A DNA stretch of 43,351 nucleotides from Deltaproteobacteria bacterium (GCA_024639645.1 JAHEIB010000003.1:1-43351), one strand, 5' to 3'; positions 17,781 through 42,583 are shown, counted from the stretch's first letter. The notes: generated by a model from the sequence alone, not told the origin. Numbers and translations are program-made.

Positions 17781-17781
17781 G

Positions 17782-23538: not shown

Positions 23539-24672
23539 TTATTTTTTAAAAGGGATTTTGATGGTAAACTGAGAGCCCTGTCCCTCAACGGAATCCACAT
23601 GGATGGATCCACCGTGCTGAGCGATGATTTTGTTGGAAAGAAAGAGCCCCAGCCCGGTTCCCTCTCGGCCTTTTGAAGAGTAAAAAAGTGAAAACAGCTT
23701 GTCCCGGGTCTCAATATCCATTCCGATACCATTGTCACCAATGATAAAGAAAAGATGCTTTTCGTCATTCTTGACTGAAAACACTATCTTGTGCTGTTTG
23801 TTCCGATCGTCTTTGATACAGGCATCGATGGCATTTTCGAGGATATTGATGAGGGCTGAATGGACAAAGCCTGTGTCGATATGAATTTTCTCGGCCGAGA
23901 AATCGAAATCTTTTTCCAGCGCTATATTGAATGTTTTACTTTTGGGTTTAACGACCCGGATGACATCATTGGCAAAGGTGAGAATATCGATTTTTTCACA
24001 TCTGAGATTCCTCTCTTTTGCGTAAAACAGGATGTCGCTCACCATTCGTCGAATCCGCTCCACCATCATTTTGAGGATGTCACCGCCTTCCTCGATCTTC
24101 AAAATGTCCTTGGTCTTCAATCCTGAAGCGAGAAGATAGAGACCGCCATCAAGACCGGTCAGCAGCCCCTTGATCCCGTGTGAAATAGATCCCACCATGA
24201 GACCCAGGTTTGAGAGGTTGTCCTGGAGTTCGGTTTTTTCGCGGATGAGTCGTTCAAGATTTTCGGTGTATTCCTGGAGCTGCTTCCGGGTGACAATCTT
24301 TTCTTCCACCCGTTTCAGGGAAATTTCAAGGGCGTCCATGTTGATGGGTTTAGTAATAAAATCAGTTGCTTGATGCTTAAGGCTTTTAATGGCCAGATCC
24401 ATGTCGCCGTGGCCGGTGATCATAATGACTTCCGCTTCGGGATTTTCGCGTTTGATGTGTTGCAAAAGAGCGATGCCATCCATGAGGGGCATCTTGATGT
24501 CAGTCAGGATAATGGGCGGTCTTTCCTCAAGAAAGGTTTCCAATGCTGTTTTGCCATTTGCCGCCGTCAACAACTGATATCCCATGTCCGACAAGGTCAT
24601 GCCGAGGACATCACGGATGTCTTCTTCGTCATCCACCAGGAGAATTTTTTTCTTGTCTTGGGACGTGTTCAT
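23539..24672 (-). CDS. Cytoplasmic hybrid protein: N-terminal receiver plus histidine kinase
   Basis: LLVDDE...LTDIKMP...ITG...TKP; H-box SISHGIKG, ENAIDA, DNGIG, GTGLGL. Confidence 0.9.
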   Translation of the reverse strand: MNTSQDKKKILLVDDEEDIRDVLGMTLSDMGYQLLTAANGKTALETFLEERPPIILTDIKMPLMDGIALLQHIKRENPEAEVIMITGHGDMDLAIKSLKHQATDFITKPINMDALEISLKRVEEKIVTRKQLQEYTENLERLIREKTELQDNLSNLGLMVGSISHGIKGLLTGLDGGLYLLASGLKTKDILKIEEGGDILKMMVERIRRMVSDILFYAKERNLRCEKIDILTFANDVIRVVKPKSKTFNIALEKDFDFSAEKIHIDTGFVHSALINILENAIDACIKDDRNKQHKIVFSVKNDEKHLFFIIGDNGIGMDIETRDKLFSLFYSSKGREGTGLGLFLSNKIIAQHGGSIHVDSVEGQGSQFTIKIPFKK

Positions 24673-24687
24673 TTTTCTTCCCTTAGC

Positions 24688-24789
24688 ATTAAGCTTTAAG
24701 CGGTAAGCTGAAAGCCTGCTAACCGCTTGTGGCTTACAGCTGTTAGCTAGCCTCGACCCCTTATTTCACCCTTGAACCCTCGAACCCTC
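24688..24789. repeat. 7-nt inverted array followed by 8-nt tandem repeats
   Basis: attaagc tttaagc ggtaagc tgaaagc ... ccgcttg tggctta cagctgt tagctag, then cctcgacccc...cccttgaaccctcgaaccct. Confidence 0.75.
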
Positions 24790-24791
24790 TA

Positions 24792-27059
24792 TTATGGTAA
24801 CGGAAACGACACAATAAAGCAGACACCCTGGTCCTTGTTAGGCAACGCCATGATGGTTCCCCCACAGTCCTTGACAATGCCGTAACTGATGGAGAGACCC
24901 AAACCGGTACCCGCACCCACTTCCTTGGTGGTGAAAAAAGGTTCGAATATTTTTTCTGCAACATGGTTTGGAATGCCGATACCTGTGTCGCAGACTTCGG
25001 CGACAACGCGGTCCCCATCGAGATAGGTTTTGAGTATAATCCGTTCTTCATGATCAACCCGGTTTGCAAAAGATATTTTCTCCTCGATAGCGTCCCTGGC
25101 ATTGAGCAGGAGGTTGATGAATACCTGTTCAAGACGACTTGGATCGGCATGGATTTTGGGTAACTCCGGTTGCATATCCTTGATGACCGCTATCCCCCTG
25201 ACTTTCAGTTGCTGGCTGAAAATCTCAAATGCGCTCACGAGGACATCGTTGATGGAAATTTTTTCCAGTGCCATGTCTGTTTTTCTGGCAAACTGCCGCA
25301 TGTGGTTGATAATCCGGGCAGCCCGGTCCACATTGCTGTCCACTTTCATCAGCATGGTTTCGAGGGTTTCTTTTTCAATATCTTCACCACGGCTGATCTT
25401 CTTGATGAAAAAACTGCTGGCCGTCTTGATGACCGACAGGGGTTGATTCAGTTCGTGGGCAACACCCGTGGCCATTTCACCCAGCGTGGCCATTTTGCTG
25501 GCCTGGATCAGCTGCTGTTCCGCCTCCAGGCGCTTGGTGATGTCACTTGTGGTGACCAGGAGCACCTCTTGCCCGGAATATTCGGAAAGAGAATTACGGA
25601 TATCCACGAAAAGCTCTTTGCGGTCTTTGGCCAGATGCTTGGCCTGGTTTATGACGGCGGATGCTGTCAGCATCGTGGCGTAATGCTCCCTTTCTTCTTC
25701 CCGGAAAAGATCCAGGAATGATCTGCCAACGATATTTTCCGCGGTGAACCCGTACACGCTCTCAACACTCATATTACAGTCCAGAATATGGAGGGTCTTG
25801 ATGTCGAGTACAAACACGGGGTTGGGTATATTGTTGAATATGTCGCGGTATTTCTTTTCGGATCGCTCCAGGTCAACTTCTAGCTGCTTGTGTTTGGAGA
25901 TATCGTGGGAGATCTCCATGGCGGCGACAATCTCGCCTTTATCGTTGACAATGGGCGAAGTCCGCACAATCCAGTGTTTGACGGTACCGTCTTTGTCAAA
26001 ACCGGTCTCTTCTGTGGAGTATGACTTGCCATCCGCGAAGGTCCATTCAACCGGGCAGCGCTTACACTTTTCCGAACGGCCCTTGTAGGCGTGGTAGCAG
26101 AAATCTCCGGGTTTGGGGTCGAACCGGGTAGAGAATTCCTTGTTGTAACGCAGCAGTTTATAATTTCGATTCTGGACGGTGATGATACAGGGAACCTGCT
26201 CAAACAGCTGCATATATTCGTCCCGCTGCATATTGAGAGCCTTTTCTTTTTGGGCGATCTCTGAACCCATTTTATCGATGGCATCTCCCAGCTGACCCAT
26301 TTCATCCTTCTGCGACAGTTGGGACTTGCTTTCATAGTCACCCTTTGCAATATCCTGGGTGCGGGTGATGAGTTTTTTGACGGGATGGTTGACAAACCTC
26401 AGCACGAAGAAAAAGATGATGGTGGATGTGAGCAGAAAAACGGAGATGGACATGCTGATAATACCACGCTGAAGGTGATACAGGGACGCATCTGTTTTTT
26501 TTAGAGAGACGACCAGGTCCAGAGCCCCGAGAATCTTCTTGTCCCGGGGGTGGATGTGGCAATCATCCGTGGAGCAGCCTGGTTCGTTTCGGATAGGGCT
26601 GATGATGCCCAGGAGCCGATACCCCTCGGCATGGTTGAATATACGCGTCCTTTCGTGGAGAGCGAGCTCGGAAAGGGGTGGTTCTGACCGGTGGCAGATG
26701 TCGCAGGCTTCGGCCTTGATGTTTGTGGACAGATCGACTTCAGAGGGTCGGTTCGAAAACTTGATTTCCCCTGCCTTATTGTATATTCGAATATTCTCTA
26801 TTTCAGGCAGCCTTCCGATGTTCATGATGATCTGGTTGATATCATCCCTGGAATTGAGCATCATGGCGTAGTGCGTTCCCAGCCGGATAGTGGTAGTGAG
26901 TCTGTCGGTGGTTCCCACAATATTCTGCATCTCCTTTTCCTTCTGATAGCGCACATTGACATAGGCCCATATTGAAACAGACACCAGAAAGACAAGACCG
27001 ATGGTCAATACGATCTTGGAGACGAGCTTTGTACGTAATTTTTTGAAAAAATTAAACAT
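24792..27059 (-). CDS. Membrane sensor histidine kinase with periplasmic heme-c motifs, HAMP and two PAS domains
   Basis: Two TM helices flank CDICH and CSTDDCH; HAMP (P...DEMGQL), PAS-PAS, H-box GVAHELNQP, NARDA, GTGLGL. Confidence 0.9.
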   Translation of the reverse strand: MFNFFKKLRTKLVSKIVLTIGLVFLVSVSIWAYVNVRYQKEKEMQNIVGTTDRLTTTIRLGTHYAMMLNSRDDINQIIMNIGRLPEIENIRIYNKAGEIKFSNRPSEVDLSTNIKAEACDICHRSEPPLSELALHERTRIFNHAEGYRLLGIISPIRNEPGCSTDDCHIHPRDKKILGALDLVVSLKKTDASLYHLQRGIISMSISVFLLTSTIIFFFVLRFVNHPVKKLITRTQDIAKGDYESKSQLSQKDEMGQLGDAIDKMGSEIAQKEKALNMQRDEYMQLFEQVPCIITVQNRNYKLLRYNKEFSTRFDPKPGDFCYHAYKGRSEKCKRCPVEWTFADGKSYSTEETGFDKDGTVKHWIVRTSPIVNDKGEIVAAMEISHDISKHKQLEVDLERSEKKYRDIFNNIPNPVFVLDIKTLHILDCNMSVESVYGFTAENIVGRSFLDLFREEEREHYATMLTASAVINQAKHLAKDRKELFVDIRNSLSEYSGQEVLLVTTSDITKRLEAEQQLIQASKMATLGEMATGVAHELNQPLSVIKTASSFFIKKISRGEDIEKETLETMLMKVDSNVDRAARIINHMRQFARKTDMALEKISINDVLVSAFEIFSQQLKVRGIAVIKDMQPELPKIHADPSRLEQVFINLLLNARDAIEEKISFANRVDHEERIILKTYLDGDRVVAEVCDTGIGIPNHVAEKIFEPFFTTKEVGAGTGLGLSISYGIVKDCGGTIMALPNKDQGVCFIVSFPLP

Positions 27060-27066
27060 AAATAGC

Positions 27067-30000
27067 TCACGACTTGGGTTCGCCGGGACTCACAATGGAT
27101 AGTGATGGCCAGTTGCTTTCCATGGCTGCGTCGATCATGTCCAGAACTTGATGATCGGAAAAGCCTTGGATCACGGATGCACTGTTGGGACAGGCCGTGG
27201 CACAGTTGCCGCAGCCCTGACACATGGCAGGGTTGACCACAATTTTCTCCAGGTTCGAATCCAGATGTCTTGCATGGTAGGGACATGTGTCGATACATTT
27301 TTCGCAAAGACTGCAGAGGCTGTGTCGCACCGAGGCGATAATTTTCCCGGCAGACAACGTTTCATGAGTGAGAATTCGTAATGCTCTTTGAGCGGCAGCC
27401 CCGGCAGTGGCGATGGTGTCCGGTATTGATCTGGGGGATAAGGCAATTCCACATCCAAAGACCCCTTCTTTGATCGCGTCTACAGGGCGCCACTTGGATT
27501 CCGCTTCCAGAAAAAACCCATCTTGATCCTTTTCAACGGCAAAAGCCTCCGCCAGTGTTGCCGGCAATTGCGGAACCATACCGGTGGCAAGAACCAGGAG
27601 ATCGGCTTCTATCTCCAGGGGTCTGTTCAGAATGGGATCGGTGACAGTAACAGCAAGGGGTGTATTCGTTTTTGTGGGAGCACTTACCCGGGGTTTGTTA
27701 TTCAACGCGTACTGGATGAAGATGACCCCCTCTTTGCGGGCAGTTGTGAAGTAACGCTCGGTGAATCCAACAGTCATCATATCACGGTAAAGAATATAAA
27801 CAGCAATCTTCGGGTTTGCCTTTTTAAGCGTTAAGGCGTGTTTCAACGATGTGGGGCAACAGACCCGACTGCAGTAATTTCTCGGTTCTTGTCTGGAGTC
27901 CACGCACTGGATCATCACCACGGAATCGAGTTTCTGTGGGTCAACATCACCTTTTGCGAGACCCGATTCCAGTTCTTTTTGGGTCATGATGGCCTGACTG
28001 GTACCGTGACCATACGCAGAGGTTGTGGCTTCGTTGCCGCCGGTTGCCAGTATGGCGACACCGTGCTGAATCGTCTCAATGCTTCCGTCACCGTTTTCGA
28101 TGCTTGTATAAAAATTTCCCACATCACCAAATGCGGCCGTAATTTTTGATTGCAGGTGAATATGGACAAGGGGGTGATTTTCTGACGCTTGAACGGTTTC
28201 ATTGAGATACGGCTCCAGAGATAGACCCTCGATGGTCTGATGCAGCCAGAGCAGGTTTCCACCAAGCTTGTCGCTTTGTTCTACCAGGTCCACGGGATAG
28301 CCGTGATCCGCGATTGCCAGGGCGGCATGCATCCCGGCAATACCACCGCCGACCACCAGGGCCCTCCTGGTGACGGGCTGCATGGATGTGGGTAGCGGAT
28401 CCATATTTTTCAGCCTGGAAATGCCCATTTTTAAAGCTGATAGCCGGTAGCTGACAGCCGATAGCTGGTTTGTTGGATTTTGGGTTTGAGTGAAGATCGG
28501 GGACATGATATCCACCACATCCATCATTTCGGCATCCAGATGAATTTGTTGGCCCAACACTCTCAGTTTTCGGATGAAAAGGTACGGATGGCACGCGCCT
28601 ATGAGGAGCCGGTTGGGCCGGCGGTCTTTAATGATCCCGGTGAGTTCCTCCCATCCAGTTGCTGTACAGCATTGTCCGAGAAAAACGACCCTGTCCACAC
28701 ACGGATCCTGTTGGAGCTGGCGTGTCAATGCTTCCTCGTCCAGATGCTCCGAATATTTGTTCCCGCAATTGCAGACAGCTACCAGCATCTTCGGCTCTTC
28801 TTTTGAGATATCCTGAAATGCCGGCTCAGAAAAAGATTCATCTGAAAGAGACCCCCCCGCAGCATGAATGATTCTGGAGGCTTCCAGAGACGCCGCAGAT
28901 GCATACATTACGGATTCACTGATATCTTTGAGGCCTGAAAACGATCCGCCGGCCAGTACACCTGATCGGTCGGTGGTCACAGGAGAAAGCGCTTCCGTCT
29001 GGATGAAGCCCCAGGGGTTAAGGGGCGCCTCGATCAGTTTTGATAATACCTCGATACCACGTGCCGGGCGCTGGCCTATGGCCAGCACCACCAGATCAAA
29101 GGTTTCATTATGGATACTCCCGTCGATCTGGGCGTATCGGATAAGCGCTTTCCCGGTCGATGTATCTGCTGTGATGGAATGGATGCGGGCCCTTTCAAAT
29201 CGTACACCGTGCTCCTGCTCTGCGCTGTCACGATAGCGCTGGAATGTTTTTCCAAACGTGCGCATGTCCATGTAAAAAATGGTGGTTTCAACGGGCGAGG
29301 GGTTCTTTTTTATCACCAGCAGGGCTTCTTTTATGGCAACCATGCAACAGACGGAAGAGCAGTAATCTGCGTCGAGTTGGACATTTCGAGAGCCTACACA
29401 CTGTATCCAGGCGATCTTCTCGATATTTTTACCATCCTGGGGTTTCACCAGCCGACCCTGTGTCGGCCCGGTGCCGCTCAGCATCCGTTCCAGTTCGCGG
29501 CTGGTAATCACGCCGGGGTTTGTCCTATAGCCATAAATGTTTTTCGATTCGGTTGGATCAAAATATGCCGTGCCACCTGATAATACAATGGCACCCACCT
29601 CAAGAGATTGAACGTCACCGGCTTCGATCTCTTCGTAAACCTGAACGATTTTTGCGATCATCTGTTCCGGGTCAAAGGGTTTCATCAGATAATCCTGCGC
29701 GCCTGTTTTCATTGCTTCCACGGCGGTTTCCACCGTGGCAAAAGCGGTCATCATCAATACACACAGGTCAGGGAAACTTTCCTTGGCTTTCTCGAGGAGC
29801 TCGACGCCATCCATTCCGGGCATCTTGATATCCGTCAACATGAGGTTGAACGACGCTTTTGACAGCTTTTTGAGCGCCATGGGCCCGGATTCGGCAACAT
29901 CCACAGAAAAACCTTCTTCGTCCAGCCACGCCTTCAGGGAGTCGCGCACGATCAGTTCGTCATCCACCACCAGGACATAAAATTCTTTACGTTTTTCAAG

Positions 30001-30581: not shown

Positions 30582-30648
30582 TTCAGCTCATAGCTGATAG
30601 CGCATAGCGCGTAGCACTGACATCTATCAGCTATGCGGTGTCAGCTAA
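30582..30648. repeat. Inverted 7-nt repeat array
   Basis: ttcagc tcatagc tgatagc gcatagc gcgtagc ... ctatcag ctatgcg gtgtcag cta; contains the upstream gene's stop. Confidence 0.75.
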
Positions 30649-31790
30649 TTGTGTATACCTACGATTTCAGCAAATTCGTCTTCCTTGAATTCAGAAAGAG
30701 GCGGCATTTCTTCTGGGTTTTTGCCGGCTTCGTAGTTGAATGCCCGCTGGGTGTTGTATGCGATCATGCGAAACAGCGGCATGATTGCGATGTCATTGGG
30801 ACAAGCGTTGGTGCATTGTCCACATCCGACACAGGCGGTGCTCATGTGCGCCAAACGGGTGATGTGGTACAGCAATGTGTCCGTGGGCATTTTTACGGCC
30901 CCTTTTTTTCTGGCCCATCGCAGATACTGGTTGGGTTCGTGATCGAACACATCGGTCACGAAAACGCACTCTCTGCAGTAGCACACGGGGCATGCAACCC
31001 GGCAGTTATAACAGTTTACGCATCCGGCCAGATAGGCGCTCAGTTTCTCCACGCTGTCCGTCTTGCCGGCTGTTTCAGCAAACATATTGTCTCGAAATGT
31101 CGTTCTTTCCGAAATCAGACGTTCTATTTCTTTCCTGCGCGAGGCAGGTTCTTCTGCAGCCGAGAGATCGAGGCTTTCAAGAAGATGGCCACCCTTGTCC
31201 GTAAGTGCCTGAACAAGGATCTGTTGACGGGTATCCACACCGAAAAAGCCGATGCTGATGTCTGCACCTTCGGCTACGGGAAGCTCGCAGGATTGGCATG
31301 CCTGTGCCGGTTCGACACTGCCCATGTCGGGGGTTTTTCCGGAAAGCACCTGAGCGGCAAATGTGTTCGCGGCCCCATCGCCGTTTTCGCCAGCCCAGTT
31401 CAGATAATCCCTGTTCCCCATCGCCCCCAGGCAGTCAATGCCGATGCGTATCAATTTGTCGGTGCGTGCCTGTTTGAGTTTGACCAGTTCCACAAAAGCT
31501 CTGATTTCGCATGGGCGCATCACGGCTGCTATGGTACCACCCGAGGGTTTACGTGTGAGGCGTGACACGATTTTGGCATTGTTCATTGGAAACGCCGGGG
31601 ACAGGGGGTCCACGCTGTTCAATGAGACCGGGTCTGTCAAGAGGGTCGGCATGACCATCTTTTTTGTGGGAAGCCTACAGGGAGCCAGGATGGCATTGAC
31701 ATCCTCCTTTGCCAGGATATTTTTAAAAAGCCCCCTCAGCGCGTCCAGCAGATCATGATCTTTAACATCTATTTTGGCCGTTATTACCAT
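30645..31790 (-). CDS. FdhB/FrhB-like (FlxC-related) iron-sulfur protein with 4Fe-4S dicluster
   Basis: MRPCE, GIDCLG, ACQSC, CVNCYNCRVACPVCYCRECVF, CVGCGQCTNACP. Confidence 0.82.
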   Translation of the reverse strand: MVITAKIDVKDHDLLDALRGLFKNILAKEDVNAILAPCRLPTKKMVMPTLLTDPVSLNSVDPLSPAFPMNNAKIVSRLTRKPSGGTIAAVMRPCEIRAFVELVKLKQARTDKLIRIGIDCLGAMGNRDYLNWAGENGDGAANTFAAQVLSGKTPDMGSVEPAQACQSCELPVAEGADISIGFFGVDTRQQILVQALTDKGGHLLESLDLSAAEEPASRRKEIERLISERTTFRDNMFAETAGKTDSVEKLSAYLAGCVNCYNCRVACPVCYCRECVFVTDVFDHEPNQYLRWARKKGAVKMPTDTLLYHITRLAHMSTACVGCGQCTNACPNDIAIMPLFRMIAYNTQRAFNYEAGKNPEEMPPLSEFKEDEFAEIVGIHN

Positions 31791-31919: not shown

Positions 31920-32345
31920 TCACCCCACCAATTGCATCCTGGCCTGGCTGGGTCCCAGGGTCTTGATCTGAGCCACGAGTTCCTGAAGGGTTTCAGCCAG
32001 CAAAACACCATCGCTGGCCGCTATCCATGTGAGCCTCAGCCGTTCAGGCTCAAATCCGAAACTGGGCAGAATCTCTTTCAACAGTTTGATACGTCGGCGG
32101 GCTTTGAAATTCCCGTTGATGTAGTGGCAGTCGCCGGGATTGCAGCCACTCACCAGAACACCATCGGCACCTTCCAGGAGCGCCTTGATGACATACTTGG
32201 GGTCCACCATGCCACTGCACATCACCCGGATGATTTTTATATTCGGTGGATAAGAGAGGCGCGATGTGCCGGCCAGGTCTGCCGCCGTATAGGTACACCA
32301 GTTGCAGAAGAAAGCCAGGATGGTGGGTTCGAAATTATCGTCCAT
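31920..32345 (-). CDS. mvhD: MvhD-like [2Fe-2S] subunit (Cys form)
   Basis: FFCNWCTYTAADLAG, VMCSG, SGCNPGDCHYINGN. Confidence 0.9.
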   Translation of the reverse strand: MDDNFEPTILAFFCNWCTYTAADLAGTSRLSYPPNIKIIRVMCSGMVDPKYVIKALLEGADGVLVSGCNPGDCHYINGNFKARRRIKLLKEILPSFGFEPERLRLTWIAASDGVLLAETLQELVAQIKTLGPSQARMQLVG

Positions 32346-32561: not shown

Positions 32562-35500
32562 CTATCCCGCCAATAGCCCTTCAATTTCAGAAAAAATCTG
32601 CTTGTCTGTAAAATGACGTACCTTGGCTGCACCACTGGGACAGTATCCGGCACAACTGCCACACCCTTTGCAGATGGCTTCGTTGACTTCACTGATGCCT
32701 TTGCGCTCGTTGAATTCGATGGCCGTGTAGGGGCAGAGGCTAATGCATACCTGGCATCCGATGCAGATATCAGGGTCGATGGTGGAGATCATCGGTGACA
32801 CGGCCACCTGGCCGGAAGCACTGAGTGAAAGTGCTTCGGCAGCGGCTCCTTTGGCCTGGGCGACGGTATCCGGGATGTCTTTGGGTCCCTGGCAGGCGCC
32901 GGCCAGGAAGACACCGCTCGTAGCGGTGGAAACGGGTTCGAGCTTGGGGTGTTCTTCCTGGTAGAAGCCATCGCTTCCGGTGGAAATACCGAAAATTCTG
33001 GCCACATCGTTTACATCGGGACGTGGCTCCATAGCGGTACACAGGATCACCATTTCCACGGGAATTTTCAATAGACTGTCGGAGAGGGTGTCTTCCGCTG
33101 TTACCCACAGCATGTTGTCGACTTCCTTCACACTTGAGGCTTTGCCGCGGATCATACGAACACCTTCGCTTTGGACACGCGTATAGAATTCTTCGTAGCC
33201 TTTGCCGAAGCAACGCATGTCGATGTAGAAATTGTAAATCTGGGTTTCGTGACCACACTTGTCCTTGAGAAGATGGGCGTACTTAAGGGCATACATACAG
33301 CATGTGCGGGAACAGTACTCATGATAGTTGATGTCGCGACTGCCGATACAGTGCAGGATAGCCACACTTTTGGGTGGCTTGGTGAACTTAAGGTGATCAT
33401 CAGGGTCGCGTTTCAAAAGCCGGCCGCTCGTAGGCCCGGTGGCATTAGACAGGCGTTCGAATTCCAGGTTGGTGAAGACGTTGGCATACCGGCCGTATCC
33501 ATACTGTGTCATGGGGCTTGGATCAAGGGGGTCAAAGCCCGTAGCAACAACGATGGAGCCCACTTCGACATCCTGTATTGTTTCCGTCATGTTATGATTG
33601 ATGGCTTTTGCCTCGCAGGCATCCACGCACAGTTTACAATCACAGCACCCTCCGCAATCCAAACACCGGGCGGCTTCCGCTGTTGCCGCTTCCTCTGAAA
33701 AACCGTGATCGACCTCATGGAAACTTTTCACCCGCTGCTGTGGGTCCAGCAGGGTGGACACGACCCTGGGGCTTGTCTCGATATCTTCGGAGACGGATTT
33801 CCAGTTGTTTCCCGGGGGTGGTCCAACCTCCGGTTGTTCTAGGATTCCATGGCGATCTTCATCACAAAGATAGCGATGGATGGCTGCCACAGCCTTGTGG
33901 CCGGCGGCAACCGCTTCGATGACCGTTGCCGGTCCGGTGACGGCATCACCGGCGCCGAAAACATGCGGGAGACTGGTCTGCATTGTTCCAGGGTTGACCT
34001 TGATGGTATTTCGCGTGGTCAATTCCAGACCGGGTTCTTTTGTGGCCCAGGACACATCAATTTTCTGTCCGATAGCGGGAATGACGGCGTCGCATGGTAC
34101 GATATATTCGGAACCCTTTACCGGAACAGGGCGCCGACGTCCGCTGGCATCCGTAGGGCCGAGTTCTGTCCGGATACAGGTGCACCCGCTTACATGCCCA
34201 TCCTTGCTCTGTATGTCCACAGGTGCTGTGAGAAAGGAGATTTCAATACCTTCCTCCCGGGCCCCGGCAATTTCTTCTTCGTAGGCAGGCATTTCACGTT
34301 CAGAACGTCTGTAGACCACCGTGACATGTTCAGCCCCGAGACGTTTGGCTACCCGTGCCGCGTCTATGGCGACATTTCCACCACCGATAACGACAACCCG
34401 TTTGCCTGGGGCTTCTCGATTCCCCAGGTTGATCTCCCTCAAAAAGCCTACAGCATCAATGACCTCTGCGACCCGCTCCTCTCCCTGGATCTGCATCTGA
34501 AGGGAGCCATGGGCCCCAATCCCCAGAAAAACGGCAGAAAATCCTTTTGACTCAAGATCCGACAGGGATATGTCCTGGCCGAAACGTACATTTGTTTCAA
34601 CGTCGATTCCGTGATCAAGGATATATTGGATCTCCTTTTCCAGCAACTTGGCTGGCAATCGATAGTCGGGGATACCCACACGGAGCATTCCTCCCAGCTG
34701 GCCGAGGGCCTCGAACAAAGTGATGCGGTAGCCTTTGAGTCTCAGGTAATAGGCCACGGTGAGACCGGCGGGTCCGGAACCGATGACGGCGATTTTTTCC
34801 GAACGGTTTTCGATCTTGGGCAGAGGTAGGTCGGAAACGTTCACCTGGTCGGCGGCAAAACGCTTCAACTCACGGATGGCAACCGGGGTGTCCACCTCGA
34901 CCCGGCGACAGGATTTTTCACAGGGTGCCGGACAGACACGGCCAAGGGTCCCGGGGAGGGGTATCTTCTCCATGATGAGTTTTACCGCCTCTTGGTATCG
35001 GCCTGTTTTGATAAGAGCGATATAGCCTTGGACGTTGGTTTCTGCAGGACATGTCTGAACACATGGTGCCCGATCAAGTTTGTCTATGGTGTAAGTGATG
35101 GGAACGGCCTGAGGAAATGGTCGGTAAATAGCTTTTCTCAGCTTGGTGCCCACATCCCATTCATTGGGGAAGGTAACAGGGCATACCTTTTCGCACTCAC
35201 CGCACCCAGTGCAGTTGGTTTCGATATAACGTGCTTTGCGAAGGATTTTGACTTTGAAGTTGCCGATAAATCCGCTGACATCCACTATTTCACTGTAAGA
35301 CAGGAGTTCAATGTTGCGCTCCTGGCCCACAGAGACCATTTTCGGTGTTCCAATACATGCCGCACAGTCCAGGGTGGGAAAGGTTTTGTCATACTGGAGC
35401 ATGTGCCCCCCGATGGTGGGCGTTCTTTCTACCAGGTATACCCTGAAACCGGCACTGGCGATATCCAGGGATGCCTGCATGCCGGCGATACCAGCGCCTA

Positions 35501-35942
35501 CCACGAGGGTGTTTGTACAGACGGGAAATTCCGCCGGTGTTAATTCCTGCTGGTGAACAACACGCATAATGCCTGCTCCGGCTATAATCTTGGCTTTTTG
35601 TGTTGCTTTTTCCTCCTCCAGGGTCACCCAGGAAACATGTTCCCGGACACTGACCATGTGGAAGGACCTGTAGGGGTTGAGACCGGCGCGCTGGCAGGCA
35701 GCCCGAAAGGTTTTTTCGTGCATCCTTGGAGAGCAGGATGCCACAACCACACGCGTGAGATGGTGGGTCCGAATATCATTTTCAATCAATTCCTGACCCG
35801 GATCCGAGCACATGAACAGATAATCCCGTGATACGGTTACATTCGGGAGGGTCGCTACATAAGCAGCCACCTCCTCCACCCGGACACGGTAAGCGATATT
35901 AATGCCGCAGTGGCAGATGTAGAATCCGACGCGTTCAGGCAT
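32562..35942 (-). CDS. hdrL: HdrL-like protein: HdrA with a GltD/NfnB-like NAD(P)H-binding insertion
   Basis: YICHCG, DKTFPTLDCAAC; insert APC...CP...LGRVCPAPCE..C, GSGPAG, GIPDYRLP, GGGNVAIDAAR, YRRS; HCIGSR, CSRTCC; start 35942 after CAGGAGG. Confidence 0.87.
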   Translation of the reverse strand: MPERVGFYICHCGINIAYRVRVEEVAAYVATLPNVTVSRDYLFMCSDPGQELIENDIRTHHLTRVVVASCSPRMHEKTFRAACQRAGLNPYRSFHMVSVREHVSWVTLEEEKATQKAKIIAGAGIMRVVHQQELTPAEFPVCTNTLVVGAGIAGMQASLDIASAGFRVYLVERTPTIGGHMLQYDKTFPTLDCAACIGTPKMVSVGQERNIELLSYSEIVDVSGFIGNFKVKILRKARYIETNCTGCGECEKVCPVTFPNEWDVGTKLRKAIYRPFPQAVPITYTIDKLDRAPCVQTCPAETNVQGYIALIKTGRYQEAVKLIMEKIPLPGTLGRVCPAPCEKSCRRVEVDTPVAIRELKRFAADQVNVSDLPLPKIENRSEKIAVIGSGPAGLTVAYYLRLKGYRITLFEALGQLGGMLRVGIPDYRLPAKLLEKEIQYILDHGIDVETNVRFGQDISLSDLESKGFSAVFLGIGAHGSLQMQIQGEERVAEVIDAVGFLREINLGNREAPGKRVVVIGGGNVAIDAARVAKRLGAEHVTVVYRRSEREMPAYEEEIAGAREEGIEISFLTAPVDIQSKDGHVSGCTCIRTELGPTDASGRRRPVPVKGSEYIVPCDAVIPAIGQKIDVSWATKEPGLELTTRNTIKVNPGTMQTSLPHVFGAGDAVTGPATVIEAVAAGHKAVAAIHRYLCDEDRHGILEQPEVGPPPGNNWKSVSEDIETSPRVVSTLLDPQQRVKSFHEVDHGFSEEAATAEAARCLDCGGCCDCKLCVDACEAKAINHNMTETIQDVEVGSIVVATGFDPLDPSPMTQYGYGRYANVFTNLEFERLSNATGPTSGRLLKRDPDDHLKFTKPPKSVAILHCIGSRDINYHEYCSRTCCMYALKYAHLLKDKCGHETQIYNFYIDMRCFGKGYEEFYTRVQSEGVRMIRGKASSVKEVDNMLWVTAEDTLSDSLLKIPVEMVILCTAMEPRPDVNDVARIFGISTGSDGFYQEEHPKLEPVSTATSGVFLAGACQGPKDIPDTVAQAKGAAAEALSLSASGQVAVSPMISTIDPDICIGCQVCISLCPYTAIEFNERKGISEVNEAICKGCGSCAGYCPSGAAKVRHFTDKQIFSEIEGLLAG

Positions 35943-38235
35943 GCAGGGCCTCCTGGTCAAGTTCTAAATTGATATGGACAGGCATGGGGTGTTCATATCT
36001 TATCTCAATGGATTGAATCAGTAGCTCGGCAATATCTTGAACAGCAATGCGTTCTTGGATACCGAGGTTCATGATGGCTTTTTGGAGCATCCGTGTGCAA
36101 TAGGGACAGGCCGTGGCGATCACACCGGCACCAGTGTTCAGGGCCTGTTCAATTCGCTGCACTGCCAGTCGGTCATTGGAGGAAGGATCCTGGAATGCGC
36201 CCCCGCCCCCGCCCCCGCAGCAGAGGCTGTTGTTACGATTGTCAGGCATTTCAACAAGGCTGAGACCCGGGATGCCCTTCAAAATACGGCGCGGCGCGTC
36301 GTAAATGCCGTTGTGACGCCCCAGGTAACAGGGATCGTGAAAGGTGACACGGCTTGTTACTTCGAATCTTGGGACCAGATCTCCTTTTGAGACGAGTCGA
36401 TCAAGGAGCACGGTGTAGTGTTCGAATTCCATGTGCGCCCGGGTATTTGCATACGCTTTTCGAAAGGTTTCAAGACAATGGGGTGAGGTCGTGAGGACCC
36501 TTTCAACACCCCGACGCTGAAAAAGCGACATATTCTCATGTGAAAGGTCTGAAAAACGGTCTACAGCACCTAATCGGAAGGCCGGGTCTCCGCAACAACG
36601 CTCTTCTTTTCCAAGGCTGCCAAATCCTACTTTTGCCTGCAGCAGCAGTTTGAGGAGCGCCCGGCCGGCCTGATTGCATGTCTGGGACGGTGTTTCGTCA
36701 TATGCCGTGGTGCAGCACGTGAACAGGCAATAGGTATGTTCCGGTTTGAAATCAGGTATATGGATATCTTCTGACCAGCACAATCGTTGCCCGGGGTCTC
36801 CCCCCCAGGGGTTACCTTTGTCCGTTAGTTGCTGCAAAGGGATTTCGAACGGCGCCGGGGTGTGCCCCTGTATGTTCTGGATTTCCCGGACGGATCTGAT
36901 TACATCGATGAGATGAATTCCCCGGGGGCAGGCGTCCCCGCAGGCATCACAGGTGACGCAGTTCCATGCAGCGTCATCGACACTCTTTACGGTACCGGTA
37001 CCCAGGCCGATTTGGCGAAGAATCTGTCTGGGGCTGTAAGCTGATACCTGATTCCAGGGACAGACAGCGGTACAGGTGCCGCACTGCAAGCAGACCATAA
37101 ACAGCTCTCCAATACGCGTCTTGACGTTTTGCATGTCCACGGAAGAGGGTTTTGCAGCTTTTTCCCGAACGCTTGTCAAAAACAGGGCCAGGGGGCGGTA
37201 GAAGAGGTGGGACCACTTTCCAAAAGGGACCTCGATGACCAGCATGGGCACGGCGATGGCCAGATGGATGACATACATGACATACGTACCCATGGGCCAG
37301 CCGGCCAGGCGCACCATGTGCATGATGATACCGGTCAGGGTGGTCAGAAAAAGGAGGATCAGGAAAAGCCAGTCGGAAAGCTCTGAAAAGCGGTGGAGGG
37401 CCTCTTGTTTTCTGCGTCGGCTCTGGAACATTTCAATGGTAACGATCAGGATGACACCGGTGGCATAGTATCCAAAGAGGCTCGAGAAATGCCAGCTGCT
37501 ATCATCCACCTGAAACCAGCGGATAAATACGATAATCAGGGTCATCATGGTCATGTAGCCGGATACCAGAAGAAAATGTTTCAGCCAGCGGCTTTTGTCC
37601 TCACTGCATTCCCGCCAGCGCTTCTGGGTTGCAAAATGAAGCACAAAGGATTTGGCTTCGGTCAGATAAAGCCGGAAAGGTACGGACGTGTCGCTCATGA
37701 TGAATCGGAACATCCTGAATGCATTTGACAGGAGAAAGAGTGACAGCACAGCCGCCATGCCAAGATCGCCGATTTCGATCCACAGAACCGGCACAAAGGT
37801 ATTGACGGCCACATGATCGGTAATGATGGGGCCGTGAAAAAACCAGAATAGAGCGATGATACCCAGGGCCACCACACCCAGCGCACCCATCTCCCATGTT
37901 TCGTAGAGATAGAATTTTTTGGCGAGACCGGTCCAGTCGTACTGGGTGGTCAACCACCGGCGGGTTGCCATCATGGTTTCTGCGGGTTCGGCACCCCGGG
38001 GACAATCTAAATTGCATTCACCACAATAATAACAGAGCCACGGGACGGGTGACTGGAGCAGCTTGTCTCTTAAACCCAGCTGAAGATAGCGGTATATCTT
38101 TCGAGGGAATGTATCTGTGCCGGTGGAAAGGGGACATGACGCGCTGCAGGTGCCGCATTGCATGCAGATTTCCATGTCTCTGGCCCCGAACTTTGCTACC
38201 TCCTGGTAAAGTTCCGGGTCGATTTCCTTATACAT
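35935..38235 (-). CDS. Membrane heterodisulfide-reductase-like protein (QmoC-like ferredoxin plus cytochrome b TM region fused to HdrD-like ferredoxin and 2 CCG domains; HdrF-type)
   Basis: CMQCGTCSASCP and CYYCGECNLDCP; about 6 TM helices with His (KHF, IHL, KWSHLFYRP); second dicluster; RCCG...SPHC and HDPCYLGR...LCCGGGGG...TACPYC. Confidence 0.88.
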   Translation of the reverse strand: MYKEIDPELYQEVAKFGARDMEICMQCGTCSASCPLSTGTDTFPRKIYRYLQLGLRDKLLQSPVPWLCYYCGECNLDCPRGAEPAETMMATRRWLTTQYDWTGLAKKFYLYETWEMGALGVVALGIIALFWFFHGPIITDHVAVNTFVPVLWIEIGDLGMAAVLSLFLLSNAFRMFRFIMSDTSVPFRLYLTEAKSFVLHFATQKRWRECSEDKSRWLKHFLLVSGYMTMMTLIIVFIRWFQVDDSSWHFSSLFGYYATGVILIVTIEMFQSRRRKQEALHRFSELSDWLFLILLFLTTLTGIIMHMVRLAGWPMGTYVMYVIHLAIAVPMLVIEVPFGKWSHLFYRPLALFLTSVREKAAKPSSVDMQNVKTRIGELFMVCLQCGTCTAVCPWNQVSAYSPRQILRQIGLGTGTVKSVDDAAWNCVTCDACGDACPRGIHLIDVIRSVREIQNIQGHTPAPFEIPLQQLTDKGNPWGGDPGQRLCWSEDIHIPDFKPEHTYCLFTCCTTAYDETPSQTCNQAGRALLKLLLQAKVGFGSLGKEERCCGDPAFRLGAVDRFSDLSHENMSLFQRRGVERVLTTSPHCLETFRKAYANTRAHMEFEHYTVLLDRLVSKGDLVPRFEVTSRVTFHDPCYLGRHNGIYDAPRRILKGIPGLSLVEMPDNRNNSLCCGGGGGGAFQDPSSNDRLAVQRIEQALNTGAGVIATACPYCTRMLQKAIMNLGIQERIAVQDIAELLIQSIEIRYEHPMPVHINLELDQEALHA

Positions 38236-38343: not shown

Positions 38344-38760
38344 CTATCCATGTTCCAGGGTAGACAAATCCTGAACTGTCGTCAGGAGATCCTCGGTTTC
38401 CAGCGGTTTTTCCATGAACGTATCGGTTAATTCATAGGCTTCACAGTGCCTGTAACCGTATACGTTTTGGCATCTCAGAAACGTGTCTTTATCCAGGTTA
38501 GAGAGCATGATGACCGGTATATGCCTGAGGACCTTGTCCTGCTTGAGGTTTTGATACAGATGGATGCCGCTTTTTCCCGGCATCATCATGTTGAGGATGA
38601 TGACGGATGGATGCTCTGTAATAGCTTTTTTGAACCCGTCTGCCTTGTTGTTCGCCGTAATTGCATTGAATCCGCTGGCGTTCAGGAGATTTATAAGGAA
38701 AATTCTCGTATCTGCCTCATCGTCCACCACAAGGATTTTTTTCACGATTTTTGCAGACAC
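38344..38760 (-). CDS. Single-domain response regulator with the phospho-acceptor Asp replaced by Asn
   Basis: GTG start after GGGAGG; KILVVDDE...VIILNMMMPGKSG...MLS...MEKP; AAC codon at 38590-38592. Confidence 0.85.
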   Translation of the reverse strand: MSAKIVKKILVVDDEADTRIFLINLLNASGFNAITANNKADGFKKAITEHPSVIILNMMMPGKSGIHLYQNLKQDKVLRHIPVIMLSNLDKDTFLRCQNVYGYRHCEAYELTDTFMEKPLETEDLLTTVQDLSTLEHG

Positions 38761-38869
38761 CCCAAAAGCCTCCCGGAAAAAAATGCTTTCGCGTTTGTGG
38801 TCTGTCAGAGAGGAATGTACACAGTGCAATCTCAGACCTTTGTTGCTATTCAGGTTTATCTGATGAATT

Positions 38870-38885
38870 AGCACAGAGCGTGCCA
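38870..38885 (-). promoter_or_regulatory. sigma54 (-24/-12) promoter
   Basis: TGGCACGCTCTGTGCT: GG-N10-GC with TGGCACG, ~110 nt upstream of the receiver gene and next to a bEBP gene. Confidence 0.75.
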
Positions 38886-38957
38886 AACTTATAATGATAT
38901 ATAACTTACAGAAATAATTGGTATAAAATGAATATTTCCCATCAGGTCATACCCTGC

Positions 38958-38998
38958 TACATCACATATGTTGCAATAAACGCAACATATGTGATGTA
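38958..38998. promoter_or_regulatory. Perfect 17-bp inverted repeat, probable upstream activator site
   Basis: TACATCACATATGTTGC-aataaac-GCAACATATGTGATGTA, 73-113 bp upstream of the -24 element and separated from it by an AT-rich tract. Confidence 0.7.
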
Positions 38999-39571
38999 AC
39001 TTATTAATAATATGATTTAAAAATTTCCTGAAACATATTGCAACGTAAGTGCAACATTGATGCAGCGTTGTGATGCTTTCAAAGCAAGGCACCGGATGTA
39101 ACAAAGGGTGCCAGCGAGCGCATCATTGATATATATGGTTCTTTTACAGAGATCAGGCGGGATGTCCTGGCGGAGTTGTATTTACGAACAGGGAAAAAGT
39201 AGGGTCCGAGGGGAATAGGCTTTGTCAGAATAGCATTCCTAAATTGCTTCGACAAATAAGGTCAAACGACCGCTCGAACTTGCAAATAAGCGCTCGTAAG
39301 GAACGCACGTGCCAAGGTATTAAAATACGATTGTCTGGTTAACAGATCTGGATTGTAATAAATTGAAGCGTACCCTGAAGCAAGCTGCAGTGAATGCTCT
39401 GCCTGACGGCAGTGCTATGCATCTCGATAATGATTTTATCTATTTGATCTGCTCGCTGACACCGCAGCAAACCTCGGGGTTAGCGCTCGCTGTTTCGGTT
39501 CAACAACGGACGAATGGGGATCTCATTGGCTATTTTGTTCCTGCCTGGCATCGTTGCGCTCTCCATGAGCA

Positions 39572-39640
39572 TTAAATGATAAGTTTTAAGCATTATGCTG
39601 CGTATCGTTTAATGATCAAAGCTTATCGCCGAAGCAGCTA
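39572..39640. repeat. Degenerate 7-nt repeat array at the bEBP 3' end
   Basis: tgataag ttttaag cattatg ... aagctta tcgccga agcagcta. Confidence 0.5.
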
Positions 39641-41371
39641 AAGTAGGTGATACCGCTTCATCTTTCGCCATAGGGTGGTGCGATCCATATTTAAAGTACG
39701 GGCTGTTTCTTTTCGGTTTCCGCCCTGCTGTTTTAAGACCTGGATGATTTTTTGGCGTTCTATTGAGGCTGATGCATCAGCACTAAGATCGGAGAGCGCT
39801 GTTTGCATATCCGATGCCGGGGAAGAGAACTGAACGTGCTCGGGCAGGTGTTCGGGTAGAATTTCCTGTTCCTGACTGATAATCAGGGCGTGCTCGAGAA
39901 TGTTTTCAAGTTCCCTCACGTTGCCGGGATAATCAAACTTGAGAAGTATTTCCAGGGTGGATTTTGAAATATTCACCGGGTGGTTGCCCCTGGCGGCACA
40001 GAGCCGTCTCAGTATATGCCGTAACAGCAGGGGTAGGTCTATCTTGCGGTCCTTCAGTGTCGGGAGTCTAAGTCTGAAAACATTCAACCGATAAAAAAGA
40101 TCTTCTCGGAACAATCCGTTTTCTACCAGCTTGTCGAGTTTTCTATTGCTGGCAGATAAAATTCGCACATCGACTTTACGGGTATGGCGACTCCCCAGTG
40201 GATAAAACTCCCTGTCTTCCAGTACCCTCAATAGTTTTGCCTGAAGTGACAAAGGCAGATCACCGATTTCGTCCAGGAAAATAGAGCCGCCATCCGCTTC
40301 GTTGAATCGTCCGGGTTTGTCCCGATCGGCGCCTGTAAATGCGCCTTTGACGTATCCGAACATCTCAGATTCCAGCAGGTTGTCCGGAATGGCGGCGCAG
40401 TTGACCTTGACAAAGGGGCAGGATGCCCGTTGGCTGGAAGAGTGGATGACCTTTGCCAGAAGGTCTTTGCCGGTTCCCGTGGGCCCTTCAATGAGGATGG
40501 TCGCGTCGGTTCCGGCAATAACGGATACGGTTTCAAACACTTTCTGCATCTCAGGGCTCTTGCCGATCATATCGTGGAAGGTGTATCGGTCGCTGATAAC
40601 CTGATCCAACTGGTGTTCGAGGGTAAGGTCGTGAAAAGTGGCCAGCCCACCGACGATGGCGTCTTTTTCGTTTTTCAGGGCAATGATATTGGCTCTGACG
40701 GGAACCTTTTCACCGGCGTTGGAAATGATTTCTCCCTGCCGGATGCTCTGCTTGATTCCTTTTTTGATGGATTCTTTCAAGAGGAAGAGATCGTTGGTTC
40801 CGTCGTTTCCGAAAATAGTTGAACAGGATTTTCCCAGGACCTGGCGTCGGTCATAACCGGATATTTTCTCGGCTTTGTTATTGAAAAAGGTTATGTAGCC
40901 CCCTCGGTTGACCGTAAAAATACCCACATCGAGATTGTCCAGGATTATTTTCAGGCTGCGCTCCTCATAATGAATGCGGTCGATGAGGTCCGCGATGGGG
41001 GAATGGTCCTGGAGAATCGTGAGACAGCCGGCCAGTTGATAACTTGCATCATAAATCGGGATAGCCATCCGTGTTAGCAAGCGTGCCGTTTCATTCTCAT
41101 TGATGATTTCCACCTCCGGCTCGTCTGTGACGGCATTGCTGTTCCCCTTCAGAAGGCAGGTGGTCATGCAGGGAACACCGGTGAAGATATCACGGCAATC
41201 TTTCTCTTTGACATCATTTTCTTTCAAACCCATGAGCGCCTGGGCCGTCAGGTTCATGGACTTTACCTTCCGGCCGAGATCCACAGTAAAGGCACCGACG
41301 CCGAGTTCATCGAGGATTGCCAGGGATTGATCGCTCCGGATGACATCTATTCTTTTATGATCTAAAGACAT
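39638..41371 (-). CDS. sigma54-dependent enhancer-binding protein (PAS-PAS-AAA+-Fis HTH)
   Basis: [55 protein letters not shown]. Confidence 0.95.
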
Positions 41372-41400
41372 TTGGAAACTCCGATAAAATTGCTTCGCAT

Positions 41401-41459
41401 TATTAGCTCATAGCTGATAGCCCGCTACGAGCTAGCAGCTATCAGTCACCGGCAGTCGG
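41401..41459. repeat. Inverted 7-nt repeat array overlapping the kinase 3' end
   Basis: attagc tcatagc tgatagc ... ctacgag ctagcag ctatcag tcaccgg cagtcgg. Confidence 0.7.
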
Positions 41460-42583
41460 ATGATAAATGTCGTGCCTTTTCCCGGCCTGCTCTTAACCTC
41501 GATCCGGCCGTTGTGGTGATCGATAATACCATACACTGTCGAGAGCCCCAGACCCACGCCGTAGCCTTCCTGTTTGGTGGTGAAAAAAGGCTCGAATATA
41601 TGCGGCAGATTGTCTTCCGGGATTCCGACACCTGTGTCCGTAATCGTGATGGTCACATGGGTCTTGTCCGTATGATATTGGCTGTCAATATGTAGGGCTC
41701 CTCCCTCTGGCATGGCGTCGATGGCATTGAAAATCAGGTTGATGATGCACTGCTGCAGCTGATTGGCGTCCCCCTGGATGTCGGGAAAGTTCGGTTGAAA
41801 GGCGGTGGTCAAAACAATGTCCTGCAACGCGAGTTTGTGTTGGCTCAAGGATGTGCATTTATTGAGTAGTTCCTGTATGCGAACAGGGCCCATGGCTGGT
41901 GGTGATTTTCTGGAAAAAGCCAGGAGGTTGGAAACAATCTGTGAACACCGTTCTGTTTCGGATTCCACAAGTTCCAGGTATTGTTTGAATTTATTTATTT
42001 TTACTTCTTTCAAAGGGTGTTTTTCTATGATTTTGGACATGAGCCTAATATAATTGAGAATACCTGAGAGGGGATTATTGATTTCGTGAACCACGCTGGC
42101 TGCCAGCCTTCCAAGGGACATCATTTTATCCTGGTGAAGAATCTGGGCCTGGTCCGCAGCCTGTTTTTCAAGGAATTTTGTGTAATCCTGTAGTTTTTTG
42201 CGGGATGTGTAACGTTGTTTTGCGCGTTTCAGAGACAGGTGCAGGGCATGGTCGCTGATGGGTTTGGTGATAAAATCGGAGGCATCAAGTTGAAGGGCCT
42301 GGATGGCGAGATCCATTTCTGCAAAAGCGGTACAGACGATCACCTCGATGTCCGGATCGAGAACCTTTACGGCCTCCAGAACCTCGAGGCCGCTCATCCC
42401 CGGCATCCGGATATCCGTGATAACAATCCTGGGAGATACCTTGCGGCACAGGTCGAGACCGCTTGTTCCATCCGGAGCGGTTGTTACCTGGTAGCCTTTA
42501 TCGCTCAGGGTGAGGCACATGACATCCAGAATGTCTTTTTCATCGTCGATGACAAGAATGTGCCAGTCGGAATGATCAGACAT
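41432..42583 (-). CDS. Cytoplasmic hybrid protein: N-terminal receiver plus histidine kinase
   Basis: LVIDDE...ITDIRMP...CTA...TKP; H-box VVHEINNP, NAIDAM, GVGLGL; start 42583 after GGAGG. Confidence 0.9.
   Translation of the reverse strand: MSDHSDWHILVIDDEKDILDVMCLTLSDKGYQVTTAPDGTSGLDLCRKVSPRIVITDIRMPGMSGLEVLEAVKVLDPDIEVIVCTAFAEMDLAIQALQLDASDFITKPISDHALHLSLKRAKQRYTSRKKLQDYTKFLEKQAADQAQILHQDKMMSLGRLAASVVHEINNPLSGILNYIRLMSKIIEKHPLKEVKINKFKQYLELVESETERCSQIVSNLLAFSRKSPPAMGPVRIQELLNKCTSLSQHKLALQDIVLTTAFQPNFPDIQGDANQLQQCIINLIFNAIDAMPEGGALHIDSQYHTDKTHVTITITDTGVGIPEDNLPHIFEPFFTTKQEGYGVGLGLSTVYGIIDHHNGRIEVKSRPGKGTTFIIRLPVTDSC

Follow-up and report, generated by a model that had tools for sequence, protein, structure and literature searches.

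How much energy many anaerobes gain is set by flavin-based electron bifurcation, and to our knowledge no known bifurcating enzyme is switched by phosphorylation; a literature search for such an enzyme found none. Response regulators with an enzymatic output include CheB, PleD and RpfG, in which the receiver and the enzyme form one chain and the kinase is encoded nearby. For the heterodisulfide reductase (Hdr) subunit HdrA, one account describes a low-potential path through the inserted ferredoxin domain and proposes conformational gating (PMC13518236). A preprint describes BamE as a fused HdrA dimer, in which the N-terminal flavin adenine dinucleotide (FAD) bifurcates beside a Cys59-Cys62 pair (bioRxiv 10.64898/2026.04.10.717634). 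The names HdrF and HdrL, together with sets of hdr, mvhD and fdhB genes, come from an account of Desulfobacterium autotrophicum HRM2, where, according to the legend of Fig. 4, hdr loci have as neighbours a response regulator, a CheY-like regulator and a histidine kinase (Strittmatter 2009, PMC2702500). Here we describe a locus (23539-42628) of a Deltaproteobacteria bacterium, located in a stretch of 43,351 nt (GCA_024639645.1 JAHEIB010000003.1:1-43351) that was analysed as a whole and is called the window below. The locus encodes an HdrA with a receiver (REC) domain inserted in its chain, here called HdrA-REC, and it also encodes a haem-type sensor kinase, an upstream REC-kinase called RECHK_up (UP), a downstream REC-kinase called RECHK_dn (DN), and REC*, a single receiver that lacks the acceptor Asp.

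Judged from its sequence, HdrA-REC is a response regulator with an unprecedented output, that is, an energy-metabolism flavoprotein with an internal receiver, predicted to be served by a kinase cascade. The locus reads as a sigma54-dependent operon of the sulfate-reducer type with REC*, HdrF, HdrL, MvhD, an FdhB-like gene and the tandem HdrA-REC, which probably reads on into both kinase genes, and its predicted product is a membrane-linked complex of the heterodisulfide-reductase and flavin-based electron-bifurcation type. We regard it as somewhat probable that kinases of this system feed the HdrA receiver and that it works as a phospho-acceptor. The literature search yielded no description of a receiver in HdrA, the supplementary Hdr domain figures of Strittmatter 2009 being outside its scope, and the words “receiver”, “response regulator” and “CheY” are absent from the main text of a preprint survey of HdrA domain architectures. 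In public records, which include a homolog from Desulfonema magnum, such proteins are named “response regulator”, “heterodisulfide reductase subunit A” or “FAD-dependent oxidoreductase”. What is added here also includes two receiver and kinase classes, a sister NtrC-like regulator and its apparent local loss, a sensor pair that occurs without the enzyme, the apparent decay of REC*, and the conservation of promoter and enhancer elements.

The domain calls are from Pfam scans of the ten locus proteins. HdrA-REC matches HdrA chains of the PDB at E 1e-113, with matches that cover both halves of the protein, and it has the make-up of a tandem HdrA: two FAD domains with GxGxxG motifs (Pyr_redox_2/FAD motifs at residues 8-38 and 730-848), two ferredoxin domains, one inserted and the other C-terminal (Fer4 at residues 112-180 and 1072-1123), and the cluster cysteines, which are invariant. 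Flavin-based electron bifurcation is a predicted activity of the HdrA-REC complex. Residues 8-182 align to residues 146-310 of HdrA and residues 313-505 to residues 316-507, which puts the receiver precisely at the point of return from the inserted ferredoxin domain to the flavin domain. The insertion lies in the N-terminal HdrA half, which is the half that bears the CxxC pair, and both cysteines of the pair (C56 and C59) are invariant in the HdrA-REC alignment. A receiver-less paralog in the same window (18408-21452) runs uninterrupted across the insertion point. A receiver at such a hinge could, we infer, gate the ferredoxin arm.

The comparison set consisted of 41 related genomes, and ortholog loci were detailed for the window and 20 fetched loci; the genome of the window itself is labelled G000 and its assembly is 83.6% complete. 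Orthologs of HdrA-REC were those with 54% identity or more, no paralog in the 41 genomes exceeding 40%, and by this cut 29 of the 41 possess an ortholog, with the receiver part unverified in G018, G025 and G036, where the contig ends before the receiver. The Response_reg family (PF00072) is present in all 120 best HdrA-REC homologs listed. In the 21 copies from the window and the 20 loci, which share 53-89% overall identity, the DD/D/T/K residues of a phosphorylatable PF00072 receiver (D196, D197, D240, T268 and K290) are intact without exception, and the same five are invariant in a 40-row alignment. On a wider scale the receiver is observed at the same site in 15 of 150 cluster representatives (50% identity). 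In a tree built without the columns of the receiver insert, the receiver-bearing rows fall into one 13-row clade with a support of 95, made up of 11 rows with the receiver and 2 without. This distribution fits one old gain of the receiver followed by a few losses, and the weak receiver score of one protein (P0127, 29.7 bits) may reflect decay of the receiver in places.

Table 1. Features of the Hdr locus in the window, with coordinates counted from the first nucleotide of the window
Feature	Coordinates	Strand	Basis
RECHK_up: REC-HisKA-HATPase hybrid kinase	41432..42628	-	Pfam
bEBP (bacterial enhancer-binding protein): PAS, PAS, Sigma54_activat, AAA_lid, HTH_8, no REC	39638..41371	-	Pfam
NtrB-like kinase gene, 5' remnant	39498..39551	-	tblastn, blastn
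Palindrome, 17-bp arms, core TGTTGC-N7-GCAACA, probable enhancer-binding site	38958..38998		sequence
sigma54-type -24/-12 promoter, TGGCACGCTCTGTGC	38871..38885	-	motif and conservation
REC*: single receiver, Asn for acceptor Asp, first operon gene, GTG start	38344..38760	-	Pfam
HdrF-like membrane subunit: Fer4, NarI-like membrane part, two CCG domains	35935..38235	-	Pfam
HdrL: HdrA-like, fused to GltD/NfnB-like NAD(P)H module	32562..35942	-	Pfam
MvhD/FlpD-like [2Fe-2S] adaptor	31920..32345	-	Pfam FlpD, E 3.7e-53
FrhB/FdhB-like iron-sulfur flavoprotein (FrhB/FdhB_C and Fer4)	30645..31790	-	Pfam
HdrA-REC: tandem (fused-dimer) HdrA flavoprotein with inserted receiver, 1160 residues	27067..30549	-	Pfam
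Receiver within HdrA, residues 192-301	29647..29976	-	Pfam Response_reg, E 4.7e-31
Haem kinase: transmembrane helix, periplasmic part, transmembrane helix, HAMP, PAS, HisKA, HATPase	24792..27059	-	Pfam, sequence
RECHK_dn: REC and HATPase hybrid, atypical H-box SHGIKG	23539..24672	-	Pfam

The features of the locus are collected in Table 1. A first-pass annotation of this DNA had described ten genes on the minus strand, and their order and domain make-up were recovered as described, together with its count of three kinases and four receiver domains. Both of the tight junctions that it pointed out are exact: the hdrF stop (35935) and the hdrL ATG (35942) overlap by 8 nt, with AGGAGG located upstream of the latter, and 7 nt separate the HdrA-REC stop (27067) from the ATG of the haem kinase (27059). 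A terminator search returned 30 sites where 21.3 +/- 5.2 were expected, a number that does not exceed chance, and none was convincing in the minus-strand intergenic gaps. Absence of REC from the bEBP was likewise correctly noted, Pfam giving only PAS, PAS, AAA+ and HTH_8; its Sigma54_activat domain scores E 1.5e-69, and its orthologs in related loci are found at 56-93% identity.

Two forms of the locus can be distinguished. A membrane HdrF lies upstream in the window and in 10 of the 20 fetched loci, and in the second form, observed in 9 of the 20, soluble HdrC and HdrB are encoded between HdrA-REC and the haem kinase; the remaining fetched locus was too short to assign to either. The FrhB/FdhB-like gene is conserved in all 19 loci that cover its position. 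Three loci (L038:7560-8879, L043:7536-8840 and L042:11108-12424) possess in addition an HdrD-like gene between the FdhB-like gene and HdrA-REC, and since it has a single in-frame TGA in a conserved LNTE-x-GH motif, it probably encodes a selenoprotein. The HdrL genes of L029 and L031 were also considered as selenoprotein genes and rejected, because they show frame shifts and no single TGA. These split HdrL genes, both from the same genus as the window (L029 9691-13090 and L031 7417-10798), are either pseudogenes or errors of assembly. In the nearest relative, G006, a gene for a 344-residue glycine-cleavage-H (lipoyl-carrier-like, or GcvH-like) protein (L059:16286-17320) lies immediately upstream of the Hdr operon. 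Lipoate-binding proteins are partners of the Hdr-like systems of sulfur oxidisers.

The sigma54 promoter proposed in the first-pass annotation is present, as TGGCACGCTCTGTGC read from 38885 to 38871, and it recurs in relatives. It precedes the GTG start of REC* by about 110 nt and has the -24 GG and -12 GC elements, rightly spaced, upstream of the first gene, with an AAA+ enhancer-binding protein encoded near it. Of 17 sites examined (the window and 16 in related loci), 13 have the pattern TGG[CT]A[CT]-N5-NTGC upstream of the REC* gene, and by hand arithmetic about 0.013 occurrences per 850-nt strand would be expected by chance. The palindrome core TGTTGC-N7-GCAACA is found at a similar upstream distance in 5 of the 16 other sites (L029, L031, L034, L038 and L045), and its only occurrence without mismatch in the window is the one at 38958-38998. 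The first gene behind this promoter, REC*, was rightly called Asp-less: N takes the acceptor position (VIILNMMMPG), which makes it a pseudo-receiver, a receiver fold without the acceptor Asp. Of 16 orthologs, 10 have N at this position, 5 have D and 1 has E, the near relatives being among those with N, and REC* appears to be a case of receiver decay within the HdrA-REC loci.

In proposing that the kinases serve the enzyme, the first-pass annotation made its case depend on their conservation next to HdrA-REC. The neighbourhood comparison bears that conservation out: of the 29 genomes, 25 have the haem kinase downstream of HdrA-REC, within 3 kb and on its strand. In the other four, the haem kinase is 7.8 kb away and inverted (G032), contig ends intervene (G003 and G020), or no haem kinase was found at E 1e-90 (G036). 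UP has an ortholog in all 29 HdrA-REC genomes and in one genome without the enzyme (G021), and 11 genomes have neither. UP and HdrA-REC are located on separate contigs in G001 and G005, so that the link between the two is not merely physical. In G036, HdrA-REC adjoins a UP-like kinase that lacks a receiver and has PAS domains.

The first-pass annotation labelled the sensor kinase as heme-c, and the protein has a CXXCH motif between two hydrophobic stretches, which are read from the sequence at about residues 15-35 and 198-222. Two motifs lie between them, C119-x-x-C122-H123 and C162-x(3-4)-C167-H168-x-H170, and both are invariant in 26 of 26 orthologs. The protein is predicted to be a periplasmic sensor of the haem-c type, with haem attachment at these motifs. 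DN is always found next to it, in loci with and without HdrA-REC. One locus of the latter kind (L050 of G021, 19-7830) encodes together a sensor kinase, a REC-kinase, a small receiver with the acceptor Asp, a bEBP and a second small receiver with Asn, where the contig ends. At a site of G008, which has no Hdr operon, an MttB-family gene in two open reading frames of 327 and 163 residues (L048:12035-13522) precedes the sensor kinase, and the same place has a phage-type integrase as well as a fragment of a Mu-type transposase; a rearrangement may account for this, and the MttB gene may contain an in-frame stop.

To relate kinases to receivers, a tree of 120 receiver domains with Shimodaira-Hasegawa-like approximate likelihood ratio test (SH-aLRT) support was used together with specificity-contact positions, which follow work on HK853/EnvZ and Spo0F and are applied as such here. 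The HdrA receivers form one clade (98), whose sister group (92) consists of the receivers of NtrC-like regulators linked to the locus and found in six related loci, and the receivers of UP and DN are sister to each other. Helix 1 reads DDELIVRDSLKEWL in HdrA and DDEKIVRESLYYWF in the NtrC-like regulators, which have I-V-R-x-S-L-x-x-W in common, and it reads DDEEDIRDVL in both DN and UP, D-I-R-x-V-L being common to the hybrid receivers. On the kinase side, the dimerisation and histidine phosphotransfer (DHp) helix of UP (HEINNPLSGILNY) resembles that of the NtrB-like kinases (HEINNPIQGLLTF), and the helices of the haem kinase (HELNQPLSVIKTA) and of DN (HGIKGLLTGLDGG) are unlike both. The kinase core of G000 closest to the NtrB-like kinase is that of UP, at 47-50% identity. 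The HdrA helix 1 and the haem-kinase DHp helix are nearly invariant across loci. The receiver tree, helix 1 and the DHp residues, the last two being the kind of specificity-residue comparison that the first-pass annotation had recommended, alike point to the class of UP and not to the adjacent haem kinase. By these three lines UP would be the donor class for the HdrA receiver; that the upstream REC-kinase itself is the specific donor is a tentative assignment, which we would stop short of calling probable. The annotation had also spoken of a multi-step phosphorelay, a term that does not hold in the Hpt sense: no Hpt family was found by the Pfam scans of the ten locus proteins, and the system would be a kinase cascade via receiver-kinase hybrids rather than a His-Asp-His-Asp relay.

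The same annotation observed that no receiver is attached to a DNA-binding domain. This is true of the window and is not true of the system, since a cassette of RECHK_up, bEBP, an NtrB-like histidine kinase and an NtrC-like response regulator is present in four relatives of the same genus (G001, G004, G005 and G006). In the stretch from the bEBP to the operon promoter, about 8-9 kb present in G006 are missing from the window. What is left there of the NtrB-like gene is a remnant covering its first 18 codons, with a tblastn match of 72% over 18 residues (E 0.002; weak alone, at the expected place) and a blastn match of 79.6% over 54 nt to the NtrB-like gene start of L040. A second remnant in the 750-nt spacer between bEBP and promoter, at 39115-39223, matches the region beside the GcvH-like gene of G006, and the two together mark the deletion. 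The X1 contigs tile 38695-39922 with at most one difference, two of the pieces overlapping by only 26 nt at 39273-39298; these runs are probably from the window's own sample and thus lend no independent support to the deletion junction. No NtrC-like ortholog was found in the assembled 83.6% of G000, where the best match is 42%. Across the comparison set, NtrC-like orthologs occur in or near the locus in 17 of the 29 HdrA-REC genomes and in none of the other 12. The absence of a DNA-binding receiver from the window is best read as a local loss, and the HdrA receiver is the only phosphorylatable receiver of the window locus outside a kinase.

From the observed anatomy, conservation, intact receiver residues and receiver kinship we infer a model for all of the phosphotransfer and for its consequence in the enzyme. 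In it, the receivers of both REC-kinase hybrids, which are sisters with alike helix-1 residues, would be phosphorylated by the periplasmic di-haem sensor kinase. The upstream hybrid, with its NtrB-like DHp helix, would then hand the phosphate to the HdrA receiver, which has the NtrC-like receiver as its nearest kin. Phosphorylation would shift the position or the mobility of the ferredoxin arm and thus the electron flow through the enzyme, and transcription would be set separately by the PAS-containing bEBP at the sigma54 promoter. The boldest reading, offered tentatively and with considerable doubt, is that a periplasmic haem-sensor cascade phosphorylates the receiver at the hinge of the low-potential ferredoxin arm of a fused-dimer HdrA and in this way switches or re-routes bifurcation within seconds, in parallel to sigma54 control.

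A number of points weigh against the model. The likeness on which the donor assignment is built consists of a few residues in 7 UP and 6 NtrB-like sequences, the two kinds differ at three contact-type positions (S/Q, N/T and Y/F), and the positions themselves are carried over from the HK853/EnvZ and Spo0F literature. Kin are not independent of each other, and it is from kinship that the order of the relay is derived. UP adjoins the bEBP, so that its co-occurrence with the operon may stem from shared transcriptional control. An NtrC-like DNA-binding regulator accompanies the locus in the 17 genomes mentioned, and the main output of the ancestral relay may have been transcription. The haem kinase and DN are intact in G008, G016, G021 and G023, which have no HdrA-REC ortholog (in G008, of the same genus, at 85% and 89% identity), and they occur as second copies in G025, G030 and G034; as the pair persists without HdrA-REC, it has at least one other output. 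With about 48 receiver open reading frames, 6 of them REC-AAA+, in the incomplete G000 assembly, another acceptor is possible. The AlphaFold2 model of HdrA-REC is of moderate quality, with a mean predicted local distance difference test (pLDDT) score of 72.9, a predicted template modelling (pTM) score of 0.71 and ferredoxin parts below 50 in pLDDT, and no inter-domain geometry can be read from it.

Several of these points are shared by a rather unlikely alternative, in which the relay is mainly transcriptional: the kinases would feed a DNA-binding regulator, NtrC-like in the relatives and unlinked or unassembled here, and the HdrA receiver would be a side branch or a phosphate sink that tunes the relay. 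The four-gene cassette of the same-genus relatives speaks for it, and so do the restriction of NtrC-like orthologs to HdrA-REC genomes (17 of 29 against 0 of 12), the retention of the haem kinase pair in four genomes that lack the enzyme, the conserved sigma54 promoter and the six other REC-AAA+ regulators of G000. Yet an NtrC-like ortholog is missing from 12 of the 29 HdrA-REC genomes, among them the same-genus G007 and G009, the best match in G000 reaches only 42% and the remnant marks a loss at the site, and a sink needs no fixed insertion point, whereas the site is kept in all copies seen. The first-pass annotation drew a shorter route, from a periplasmic signal through a kinase, by implication the haem kinase, to the enzyme, taken as the most obvious terminal phospho-acceptor. 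Its choice of acceptor is backed by a receiver that is intact in 21 of 21 copies and is the sole live receiver outside the kinases, and the direct route is probably wrong, as the kinase travels with DN and survives without HdrA-REC in four genomes. Direct phosphorylation of the HdrA receiver by the neighbouring haem kinase, the two forming a plain two-component pair whose response regulator is the enzyme, we regard as improbable. The 7-nt gap between the two genes and the position of the kinase within 3 kb in 25 of 29 genomes would suit such a pair, but HdrC and HdrB genes intervene in 9 of the 20 fetched loci, DN is always next to the kinase even where HdrA-REC is missing, and the DHp helix is unlike that of the NtrB-like class, whose partner receiver is the sister of the HdrA receiver.

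The direction of the signal could also be reversed, such that the redox state of the HdrA clusters alters the gain or loss of phosphate by the receiver, and the enzyme reports to the relay and, via the hybrid kinases, to gene expression. The receiver adjoins iron-sulfur domains and the locus is rich in hybrid kinases able to read a shared phosphate pool, which would accommodate the idea; no result of the analysis favours it specifically and the bEBP has no receiver to take the output, and we consider it very unlikely. Least of all do we expect a receiver that is no longer phosphorylated and serves just for structure or dimerisation. A pseudo-receiver does exist in the same operon, N being the acceptor residue of REC* in 10 of 16 orthologs, but all five residues of the HdrA receiver are kept in 21 of 21 copies at 53-89% identity, in the same loci where REC* shows decay. 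If the HdrA receiver is a working switch, marine-sediment sulfate reducers can use an extracellular redox or ligand signal to tune one of their core redox complexes directly, and HdrA-REC would offer a natural handle on the gating of bifurcation by the ferredoxin arm. The boldest reading, a haem-sensor cascade acting on the hinge receiver, would constitute direct post-translational His-Asp control of an energy-coupling redox enzyme beside sigma54 gene control. Its three kinases and four receivers, three live and one dead, make the locus a defined test set.

The window also contains related genes outside the locus, all on the minus strand. The receiver-less paralog at 18408-21452 is a second tandem HdrA, with an in-frame TGA in CAMU where HdrA-REC has CGMC, and downstream of it (14777-17780) are encoded two Fer4 proteins and an NAD/FAD-binding protein with a DHODB-type Fe-S domain. 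The whole of 14777-21452 looks like a BamE-like or selenocysteine Hdr module. About 5 kb from this paralog, at 10374-13358, lies a gene for a 994-residue GAF-PAS-HisKA-HATPase-REC hybrid kinase, whose receiver groups in the receiver tree with that of another hybrid kinase (C112).

Several known systems come close to HdrA-REC. BamE of the class II benzoyl-CoA reductase of Geobacter metallireducens is, in the accessible part of its description, likewise a fused HdrA dimer with two thioredoxin-reductase-like FAD domains per chain, with a Cys-x-x-Cys pair in the N-terminal half as C56 and C59 here, and with an MvhD-like adaptor and a CCG-type subunit as partners as here; unlike HdrA-REC, it has no receiver domain in that part. 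The partners of BamE are BamBC and BamGHI, and those of HdrA-REC are HdrF, HdrL and the FdhB-like protein. The likeness is drawn from the published description, since no BamE or benzoyl-CoA reductase chain was among the 60 PDB matches listed. The account of the D. autotrophicum hdr genes, in the part consulted (PMC2702500), includes neither a receiver inside HdrA nor a phosphorelay.

HdrA of methanogen HdrABC-MvhAGD and of related complexes (PDB 5ODC, 8RVU, 7BKB and 9SFI) matches at E 1e-113 to 1e-89 and shares the FAD domain, the inserted and C-terminal ferredoxin domains and the cluster cysteines. HdrA-REC differs from it by the tandem fusion, by an N-terminal half without the N-terminal cluster domain, by a bacterial context with no hydrogenase, and by the 110-residue receiver between the equivalents of residues 310 and 316. 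As for regulation, NtrC-family chains (1ZIT, 3DZD and 1NY5) are among the best PDB matches of the HdrA receiver, and the H-boxes of the HE[IL]NNP/HELNQP kind, the sigma54 promoter and the enhancer-like palindrome likewise recall NtrB/NtrC systems; unlike these, the window is without an NtrB/NtrC-like pair, and its bEBP has PAS domains and no receiver. In contrast to CheB, PleD and RpfG, the output of HdrA-REC would be an iron-sulfur flavoprotein of energy metabolism, and its receiver is internal rather than N-terminal.

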